This document shows positions 273-1,361 of a stretch of 59,390 nucleotides of DNA, piece after piece. A program made the position numbers and the translations under genes. Origin of the DNA: Promethearchaeota archaeon (GTDB taxonomy: Archaea > Asgardarchaeota > Lokiarchaeia > Sigyniarchaeales > SOKP01). The stretch covers positions 1 through 59,390 of the forward strand of contig RDOE01000012.1 in NCBI GenBank assembly GCA_011364975.1. The letters are read 5' to 3'. Within the stretch, counting starts at the first letter, position 1; each line of letters starts with the position of its first letter. The notes beneath the pieces are model-generated. The model was given only the letters and a program-made list of their open reading frames with translations. It was not told the DNA's origin and ran no database searches.

Positions 273-1361
273 ATGGCACAACCAGAAAGAAATATCATTA
301 AATTTGAAGATATTCTTGCTAGAAAAGAAAAAAGCAACGTACTTTTTCTAAATTATGATAATGAAGCGTTTATGAATACAGGTATTCAGGAGTCTGGTGG
401 AACACCCCCTTTTGCTAGCACAACTACCGGTCCTGGTGGCGAAAAGATACCAGGTAAGATTGGAGTTAAGCAAGATTTAGTTACCCCTTTTGCTTTTTTT
501 GGTACAAAATCACTTTTTCTGGCAACCGTCAATCCAGCATATCCTAATGATTTTATGGGAAAAATAGCTGAAGCTTTAAAAACAAATGGGTCAGCGTTTA
601 TACAAGCATATAGTGATTGTATGCGTGGGTGGAGACATGAAGCAAATGAAGCAATAAAGATTTCAAAATTGGCAACGGATTGTGGATATTGGCCACTATA
701 TACGGTGAGAGTGAAAGATGGCGTTCCAGTTTTTTCTTATTTTAGAGGATTAGACATAGATAAAGATAAATTTGTAGAATATTTAAAATCGATGGGACGA
801 TTTAGGCACCTATTCAAACCCAAATTTATGGAAAAGGAAATAGATGAAATAATCTATTTTACCGAACAGCGTAATAATCGATTAAAGGGATTAATAGAAA
901 CCTTTGGTGCAGAAAAACCAATTGATGTATATAGAGTTAATAGAAAAACTCTAGACCCTCAAGAGCATTTGCTTCCAGGTCATGGATTATGTCCTGGTTG
1001 TGGGGCAGGTATGGTACTCAATCAGATGGCAACTGCTGCGTATGCAGTTGCGGGAAATAATATTATCTACGTTAACAATACGAGCTGTTCAGAGGTGTCT
1101 ACTTCTAAAGATTTTGTTACATCTTGGAGAGTGCCTTGGGTTCATCACTTATTTGAATCAGGTGCCACTATAGCAGATGCGATTAGTACTTCTTATAAAA
1201 TTTTAAAATCTAAGGATGAATTTGACGGAGAAGTGCCTTACCTAATTCACATTGGTGGTGATGGTTCCACTTACGATATCGGATTTCAATTCTTAAAAGC
1301 AGCCCTCATTAGAACGAGTTCCTTTGTTGAAATGAATGAATACCTAACCTCTCAAAAATAA
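273..1361 (+). CDS. porB: 2-oxoacid:ferredoxin oxidoreductase beta subunit, circularly permuted
   Basis: YDNEAFMNTGIQ..TP, SDCMRGW, GYWPLY and GRFRHL come first; GHGLCPGCG, TSCSEV, PWVHHLFE and GGDGSTYDIG come last. ATG 273 follows the porA stop; the track start at 255 overlaps porA. Confidence 0.9.
   Translation: MAQPERNIIKFEDILARKEKSNVLFLNYDNEAFMNTGIQESGGTPPFASTTTGPGGEKIPGKIGVKQDLVTPFAFFGTKSLFLATVNPAYPNDFMGKIAEALKTNGSAFIQAYSDCMRGWRHEANEAIKISKLATDCGYWPLYTVRVKDGVPVFSYFRGLDIDKDKFVEYLKSMGRFRHLFKPKFMEKEIDEIIYFTEQRNNRLKGLIETFGAEKPIDVYRVNRKTLDPQEHLLPGHGLCPGCGAGMVLNQMATAAYAVAGNNIIYVNNTSCSEVSTSKDFVTSWRVPWVHHLFESGATIADAISTSYKILKSKDEFDGEVPYLIHIGGDGSTYDIGFQFLKAALIRTSSFVEMNEYLTSQK

Follow-up and report, generated by a model that had tools for sequence, protein, structure and literature searches.

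Circularly permuted segment order in a putative 2-oxoacid:ferredoxin oxidoreductase beta subunit of Asgard archaea

The analysis covered 59,390 bases from the beginning of contig C33 (RDOE01000012.1) in the genome of a Promethearchaeota archaeon (GCA_011364975.1), a stretch referred to as the window; its base 1 is the contig end (G000:C33:1). An open reading frame (ORF) at positions 273 to 1361 of the forward strand (362 amino acids plus stop codon) very probably encodes a naturally circularly permuted beta subunit, carrying thiamine diphosphate (TPP, also ThDP) and a [4Fe-4S] cluster, of a 2-oxoacid:ferredoxin oxidoreductase (OFOR) of the POR/VOR type. OFORs are central to the fermentation of amino acids and organic acids proposed for Asgard archaea. 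The segments of the encoded protein, which corresponds to OFOR domain VI (the PP domain), stand in permuted order, an uncommon arrangement among these enzymes, and the non-collinearity with ordinary beta subunits is far beyond chance. This order is conserved among the relatives of the gene, which is under purifying selection and linked in an operon to genes for the partner subunits. Judged from these sequences, the permuted beta is real and conserved and very probably a functional enzyme subunit, and it would be expected to fold within a single chain, to bind its cofactors and to be active.

Order of segments and motifs

Two canonical PorB-type paralogs of 299 (C144, L002) and 311 amino acids (C158, L004) are encoded in the same genome. 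In both of them the order CxxC, C, GDG-28-N, C-PGW, WPLY was read directly, which is the canonical order that the original prediction for this gene had taken as its reference. According to PMC5020499, the Gly-Asp-Gly and an Asn 28 residues past its Asp bind Mg2+ at the TPP diphosphate in solved OFORs; the same paper places the proximal cluster in domain VI, and TPP where domain VI faces domain I, in the space between the two. In the permuted beta, the motif NYDNEAFMNTG (residues 27 to 37; Y28 at base 354) comes first and contains N30 (bases 360 to 362), the Mg-ligand Asn by alignment. It is followed by SDCMRGW (C116 at 618 to 620) and WPLY (residues 140 to 143), then by GHGLCPGCG (from base 978; C240 at 990 to 992, C243 at 999 to 1001), TSCSEV (C272 at 1086 to 1088) and, close to the C-terminus, GGDGSTYDIG (from base 1254; D330 at 1260 to 1262). 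Every motif that had been named is present where it had been placed. The GDG and the Asn of the Mg2+/TPP motif are both there, in reversed order and 300 residues apart, and the four cysteines expected for the proximal [4Fe-4S] cluster (CxxC, C and C..GW) are represented by C240, C243, C272 and C116.

Alignments to ordinary beta subunits fell into two non-collinear stretches with both BLASTP and hhalign, as had been anticipated, and no collinear alignment to an ordinary PorB was obtained. With BLASTP, residues 16 to 180 matched residues 115 to 273 of one of the genome's own paralogs (E 4e-22), while residues 227 to 352 matched its residues 7 to 123 (E 3e-10); the second paralog gave an equivalent pair of non-collinear alignments. 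The identity of the two halves to these paralogs is just 28–35%. The NCBIfam model PorB (NF008819) also matched in two stretches, with residues 20 to 191 on profile positions 118 to 290 of 300, and reached 210.3 bits against a cut-off of 405, a sub-cut-off score as expected from the swapped segment order. A collinear full-length match to a PorB family model above cut-off was not found, and Pfam TPP_enzyme_C was matched by its second half alone (profile positions 68 to 150).

The limits of the segments were taken from an hhalign comparison of a profile built from 55 members of the permuted family with one built from 50 canonical beta subunits. Residues 18 to 210 (bases 324 to 902, forward strand as for all segments) correspond to canonical columns 137 to 328 (E 7e-50), that is, to the C-terminal two thirds of a canonical beta subunit, and contain the strand leading to NYDNEAFMNTG, the fourth cluster cysteine C116, WPLY and the C-terminal helices. 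Residues 222 to 352 (bases 936 to 1328) correspond to canonical columns 13 to 143 (E 7e-33), the canonical N-terminal third, with CxxC, C272, the GDG including D330, and the following helix. No third match between the two profiles was found by hhalign with alternative alignments (best probability 0.4), so that the protein consists of two homologous segments, each present once and swapped relative to the canonical order. The gap between the two matches, residues 211 to 221 (FGAEKPIDVYR, bases 903 to 935), forms the junction between the old C-terminus and the old N-terminus. A linker joining the old termini had been proposed, and there is indeed no stop codon between them, the approximately 11 unaligned residues lying inside the linker that was named. 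Within the junction, Y220 is invariant and G212 nearly invariant among family members; a strand is predicted for residues 212 to 221, and in the AF2 model the 10-residue blocks over residues 201 to 230 have mean pLDDT values of 93–94. New segments are found at both ends: an N-terminal one of 17 residues (bases 273 to 323), for which hhalign aligned no canonical counterpart and in which the AF2 model predicts a short strand (residues 6 to 10) and a helix (11 to 15), and a C-terminal tail (residues 353 to 362, bases 1329 to 1361 including the stop codon), likewise unaligned to canonical beta subunits.

The cut site lies at canonical columns 137 to 143 (ERGxDFL), in the turn between the helix after the GDG and the strand with the Mg-ligand Asn, and each end of the permuted beta contains a counterpart of these seven columns (residues 18 to 24 and 346 to 352). 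The chain is opened inside the GDG..N motif, in agreement with the original prediction, which leaves N30 close to the start of the chain and D330 close to its end. In all 55 family members compared (53–88% identity to the query), N27-Y28-D29-N30-E31, G329-D330-G331, C116, C240, C243 and C272 are invariant. The expected four cysteines are kept in every member, as had been claimed for the single sequence, and are the likely cluster ligands.

Operon and predicted structure

The gene context was read on the chromosome of L042, a complete one, where three tightly spaced genes follow one another in the order gamma-delta fusion, alpha, permuted beta. The gamma-delta fusion (332 amino acids) contains a Pfam POR domain and two Fer4 motifs and scores 148 bits with TIGR02175 (PorC_KorC) against a cut-off of 81, while alpha (409 amino acids) consists of POR_N and PFOR_II. 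Alpha keeps an invariant E71-S72-E73, by analogy with canonical alpha subunits probably the motif with the TPP-activating Glu. Models of the POR type are the best-scoring ones for alpha, beta and gamma. In the tblastn comparison, alpha was located directly upstream of the permuted beta and gamma-delta before alpha in the loci with enough upstream DNA, and among five distantly related genomes the operon is kept in four (G135, G138, G143, G128). In the window, the 3' end of the alpha gene (OFOR domains I and II; 89 codons plus stop) occupies positions 2 to 271 on the forward strand, being open at the 5' side where it is cut by the contig end. It shares 84% identity with residues 321 to 408 of the L042 alpha (409 amino acids) and matches positions 313 to 386 of the 387 in the NCBIfam profile PorA_Arch. 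The beta subunit starts with ATG at 273, one base past the alpha stop codon (269 to 271), and the same start is found in family members. When the assembly of the window was searched with the L042 alpha, neither the missing part of alpha nor the gamma-delta gene turned up at another place.

Some loci deviate from this arrangement. Alpha and beta are 1.4 kb apart in L084, and gamma-delta and alpha approximately 2.4 kb apart in L028 and L044. In G279 the operon is split on contig C1: beta is located alone at about 1.50 Mb (L098, 6064–7113), and gamma-delta and alpha at about 2.05 Mb (L099, 3926–6127), approximately 0.54 Mb away. L080 (1148–3229, equal to G258:C34) contains residues 1 to 319 of alpha and 19 to 361 of beta in one frame of 715 amino acids, which is either a gene-fusing deletion or an assembly error. 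The genome of the window also contains two complete canonical porA-porB pairs (C144/L002 and C158/L004) and weaker alpha-like matches on C184, C149 and C85; this genome has several OFOR paralogs, the permuted enzyme among them. An assignment to a particular substrate was rejected, since no equivalog cut-off was reached and the downstream genes vary between loci.

On the proposed arrangement, the chain would start with the beta-strand into the Mg-ligand Asn N30 (NYDNE), continue through the canonical C-terminal part, the 11-residue junction and the canonical N-terminal part, and end just past the helix that follows the GDG (D330). The cut would be located in a helix-to-strand loop on the side of the sheet facing away from the cofactor, and D330 and N30 would for this reason come together at the Mg2+-diphosphate site as before; the proximal cluster would likewise remain bound by the four cysteines. 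The permuted beta would pair with alpha, the product of the gene directly before it, and with the gamma-delta fusion, which would carry two further [4Fe-4S] clusters, and the whole complex would oxidatively decarboxylate a 2-oxoacid to the acyl-CoA with reduction of ferredoxin.

Structure predictions are consistent with such an arrangement. The AF2 model of the permuted beta, calculated from 55 permuted sequences and without templates, has a mean pLDDT of 81 and a pTM of 0.86. Foldseek returned 22 matches at E<=0.001, and the 13 entries listed are all OFOR beta or PFOR chains, with 9bt4_C, 5exe_C, 5c4i_C, 7plm, 6cin to 6ciq and 1b0p in the lead. VIA-align, whose top matches likewise all belong to OFOR domain VI, placed the first segment with Z values of 10.1 to 12.2 (e.g. 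model residues 19 to 211 on 980 to 1170 of PFOR 2c3y_B, Z 12.1) and the second in a separate match of lower Z (model residues 235 to 361 on 7 to 274 of 5b46_B, Z 4.2, rmsd 2.3, 108 aligned). From these models, the whole fold may be the same as that of ordinary domain VI. Prediction of alpha together with beta had also been suggested at the outset. The complex of the L042 alpha with the permuted beta reached a score of 0.81 (median of three runs) against 0.00 for the best control, a score that may partly reflect likeness to solved complexes. A mark of 0.81 is reached by 58 of 80 solved complexes and by 2 of 110 mismatched pairs, a calibration that applies only roughly here, since the complex was predicted from custom alignments. 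Contacts agreed between runs to at least 93%, and the pLDDT of the partners was at least 85. The predicted alpha interface on the permuted beta comprises residues 262 to 358, i.e. the old N-terminal segment together with tail residues 347, 355 and 357–358; on alpha it comprises residues 37 to 108 and 206 to 228. Taken with the operon, the beta subunit is encoded with alpha and with the gamma and delta modules and is predicted to bind alpha.

The two segments might instead pair between chains in a domain-swapped dimer or oligomer, or the protein might be an alpha-binding subunit with an altered role, for example with a different electron path or quaternary structure. According to PMC5020499, two protomers form an OFOR dimer, and domain VI and its C-terminal extension take part in the dimer interface; the old C-terminal helices are now located in the middle of the chain. 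The new C-terminal tail predicted at the alpha interface and the long stem of the permuted clade (1.27, see below) also speak for such readings. Against them stand the confident model of the monomer as a single compact fold (pTM 0.86), the pLDDT values of 86–87 for the partners in the heterodimer with an interface of the PYR/PP type, and the conservation of all catalytic ligands. Taken together, both variants are unlikely compared with a permuted beta subunit folded within one chain.

Distribution, origin and selection

A search for the same order in Asgard genomes had been proposed with the original prediction, and when 400 genomes of the phylum were searched in six frames (threshold E<=1e-60), the gene (359–366 amino acids) was found in 131 of them, 130 belonging to the class of the window. 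By family, it was present in 107 of 134 genomes (f1), 1 of 1 (f2), 12 of 14 (f3), 4 of 4 (f4), 1 of 3 (f5), 2 of 2 (f6) and 2 of 2 (f7). The only match outside the class (G075; 86% identity, covering query residues 1 to 266 alone, in a genome with 8% contamination) is read as contamination. Genomes carrying the gene include the single-contig ones G135, G138, G143, G189 and G279. A scan with one genome per species gave 134 species genomes with a relative, and the best 80 of these were kept as loci. A word-index search of 5.8 billion proteins yielded 243 matches; the best 120 of the 243 are mostly 359–368 amino acids long, with 96–100% query coverage and 54–89% identity, and originate from NCBI, JGI, ENA and Logan assemblies (more than 100 clusters from five data sources).

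Several observations in the records touch on this distribution. The L045 contig, filed as a Nanopelagicaceae bacterium metagenome-assembled genome (MAG), contains an Asgard alpha, the permuted beta and a partial gamma-delta (77–85% identity); L045 and G075 look like mis-binning. Proteins 83–86% identical carry several different Asgard phylum names. Three otherwise full-length matches contain one in-frame TGA each (G163:C1:39240-40355, G274:C195:2920-4041 and G273:C59:6175-7026), those of G163 and G274 being 30–36 bases longer than usual.

For the origin of the permuted beta, a HMMER search without length limit was made in 1.84 billion cluster representatives, and the best 150 of 1359 matches were evaluated. 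Among these, the proteins collinear with the permuted beta are P0122 (365 amino acids, one stretch over residues 6 to 359), P0123 (257 amino acids, spanning the junction) and short fragments, and the remaining matches listed show two stretches each. A tandem or fused beta-beta intermediate was not seen among the same 150, no separate search for longer proteins having been made. The nearest canonical relatives among the matches listed are an 852-amino-acid protein of Altiarchaeales MAGs and PorB of Bathyarchaeia (39–46% identity). A quick tree, for which the segments had been put into canonical order, groups the 16 permuted sequences in a single clade (SH-aLRT 100, stem 1.27); 27 of its 65 inner forks are open, leaving the backbone unresolved, and other sequences are closer relatives than the genome's own paralogs. 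The gene probably arose once, in an ancestor of one Asgard class. The likely route, as far as the sequences allow it to be traced, would start from a canonical beta gene duplicated in tandem and fused in frame with its copy, after which the first copy would have lost its 5' part and the second copy its 3' part. The overlap of seven columns and the uninterrupted run from the old C-terminus to the old N-terminus fit this route. Residues 1 to 17 might have been left over from the strand and helix of the GDG, and the tail (353 to 362) from YDNE..NTG, but both readings were rejected because hhalign gave no support (best probability 0.4).

A number of points weigh against the permuted beta as a functional subunit of this origin. 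The protein is known here from genes and predicted models. In the AF2 model the pLDDT falls below 50 at residues 35 to 64, the TPP/substrate loop, and at 275 to 280, and nowhere else; in OFORs this loop is normally ordered against alpha and the cofactor. Sequential structure aligners cover one half at a time, with TM values of 0.31–0.38 by query length, as is expected when such an aligner meets a permuted chain. All equivalog scores are below their cut-offs (PorA_Arch 299.6 versus 550, PorB 210 versus 405), which makes the family divergent and its substrate unassignable. At the search threshold the gene is absent from some complete genomes of the same genus (e.g. G267 and G270, completeness 100) and is therefore dispensable. 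A hint of transcription consists of a single RNA contig of 208 nt from one library, for which DNA carry-over is possible, too little for a claim of expression. Apart from the seven columns in common, hhalign found no remnant of the duplicated segments, so that the direct evidence for the duplication route is thin.

The absence from some genomes of the genus, the HMM scores under the family cut-offs and the partial duplicates of the 3' end at the locus (see below) would also be expected if the gene were a decaying remnant of a tandem porB duplication, either a pseudogene or the gene of a non-catalytic protein. The coding sequences argue strongly against decay. In 76 of 81 genes (80 loci and the window) the frame is intact, with 361–366 codons and thus lengths within 5 codons of each other; the five genes dropped are L058 and L073 (stop codons upstream of the true start in the backward extension), L080 and L081 (truncated or fused) and one further row. 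Over 400 random pairs from the 76 genes, pN was 0.110 and pS 0.726, the synonymous sites being saturated, and pN/pS was 0.15 overall. Values for the parts were 0.12 (residues 25 to 200), 0.14 (233 to 345), 0.26 (1 to 24), 0.23 (junction, 201 to 232) and 0.19 (tail, 346 to 362), by which the new termini and the junction are constrained too. The ligands of Mg, the TPP motif and the cluster are invariant in 55/55 members, as described above, and the operon with alpha and gamma-delta is conserved, no other beta subunit being seen in it where the ORFs were read. A decaying remnant is very improbable on these grounds, and the gene is, judging from codon comparison, under purifying selection. The assumption of the original prediction that the enzyme is probably functional gains support from this selection, from the conserved operon and from the predicted binding of alpha.

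An assembly or binning artefact, in which a chimeric contig near a contig end would join mis-ordered pieces of two porB paralogs, is refuted: the window does open at a contig end within the alpha gene, two canonical porAB paralogs in the genome might confuse an assembler and a degenerate copy of the 3' end of the gene is located 885 bp downstream, but the same order and length recur in the 131 genomes, some of which consist of a single contig, and in over 100 protein clusters, and halves just 28–35% identical to the genome's own paralogs are not mis-joined pieces of them. Independently assembled Logan contigs from three studies also span the junctions without joints (X2, 1–2231, 7 differences; X4, 464–1879, 1 difference; X9, 464–1391, none). 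They bridge bases 880 to 980, where a misassembly had been named as the point to check, and none was found.

Relation to known enzymes and downstream sequence

The permuted beta is most similar to beta subunits of the PorB/VorB type (NF008819, NF008818; 9bt4_C of the Methanosarcina acetivorans PFOR). Both consist of the same two blocks (28–41% identity) and have the Mg/TPP residues GDG...N, the four cluster cysteines and WPLY in common; the operon partners are the same (alpha with POR_N and PFOR_II, gamma with the POR domain, delta with 2x[4Fe-4S]), and these proteins are the best structural matches. In contrast to them, the blocks of the permuted beta are swapped, so that the motif reads N...GDG, the chain is 362 instead of approximately 290–330 amino acids long with additional segments of 17 residues at the N-terminus and 10 at the C-terminus, C(P)PGW is replaced by CMRGW, HMM scores are about half the family cut-offs, and gamma and delta are fused in one gene of the operon. 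The beta subunit of oxalate oxidoreductase from Moorella thermoacetica (5c4i_C/5exe_C; NF045792) gives the second-best family score (186 bits, far below the cut-off of 590) and is matched by Foldseek and VIA (Z about 10); it shares the domain VI fold and the cofactors, but has the canonical order. Domain VI of single-chain PFOR (Desulfovibrio africanus 1b0p, Moorella thermoacetica 6cin) gives the best VIA match (Z 12.2, rmsd 3.3, 180 aligned). Single-chain PFOR contains all domains in one chain of 1,200 amino acids and in canonical order, whereas the permuted beta is a separate and internally permuted chain.

Rearrangements of whole domains are said to have been described for TPP-dependent enzymes by Duggleby in 2006, Costelloe in 2008 and Vogel and Pleiss in 2014, with the order of PYR and PP domains reportedly differing between transketolase and decarboxylases. 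These cases resemble the present one in that the superfamily tolerates changes in connectivity while the PYR/PP cofactor site is kept. They differ in that entire domains are permuted there, while the permuted beta is cut inside the PP domain, between the halves of the signature motif. To our knowledge, it is rare in nature for a circular permutation to cut a signature cofactor motif in a protein that is nevertheless under strong selection. In searches of the full-text literature (subscription journals and supplementary files being outside the scope) no description was found of a permuted OFOR beta subunit, nor of any ThDP PP domain with an internal circular permutation, in agreement with the earlier statement that no such arrangement was known. 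It is conceivable, a proposal we hold with a little less than even confidence, that no ThDP enzyme with a natural circular permutation inside its PP domain had been found before, and that this one was fixed once in the ancestor of an Asgard class that, going by record titles, contains genomes of the Lokiarchaeota type, with an active enzyme whose Mg2+ site is formed from both chain ends and with non-neutral consequences. If so, the permutation would bring a new conserved tail to the alpha interface, while the old C-terminus, which made dimer contacts, would be buried in the middle of the chain, and this lineage-specific OFOR could have an altered assembly, partner or substrate range.

The family provides a test case for the re-threading of a Rossmann-like cofactor domain, for which over 100 diverged natural sequences, canonical paralogs encoded in the same genomes and solved canonical structures are available, and the permuted order marks one Asgard class as a clean, synapomorphy-like character. 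Besides its interest for protein evolution and for OFOR specialists, it has a practical bearing on the annotation of Asgard metabolism. Among the best 120 of the 243 protein matches, all 28 rows named by NCBI are termed 'hypothetical protein', and all 15 named by JGI are termed POR beta subunit. With 'hypothetical protein' as name and HMM scores at about half the cut-off, one OFOR can be missed or left incomplete in metabolic reconstructions of Asgard archaea.

Downstream of the gene, a degenerate direct repeat of its 3' end is found at 2078 to 2230 on the forward strand. The repeat copies positions 1193 to 1345 (153 nt, 78% nucleotide identity), contains stop codons, and is a trace of a rearrangement at the 3' end of the gene; it is located outside the enzyme proper, 885 bp downstream of its source. 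Second copies of the 3' end were also found in L062 (6147–6302), L081 (3596–3946, an intact ORF of 116 amino acids) and L076 (10151–10227). In these other genomes the copies are located 1–2.8 kb downstream of the intact gene, with differing genes in between, and the 3' end looks like a recurrent insertion or duplication point. In the window, the repeat and its source flank an ORF at 1443 to 2057 on the forward strand (204 amino acids), for which no Pfam or NCBIfam match was found. Homologs of this ORF (54–58% identity) are located on the opposite strand, 1–5 kb downstream, in L008, L009, L047 and L059.

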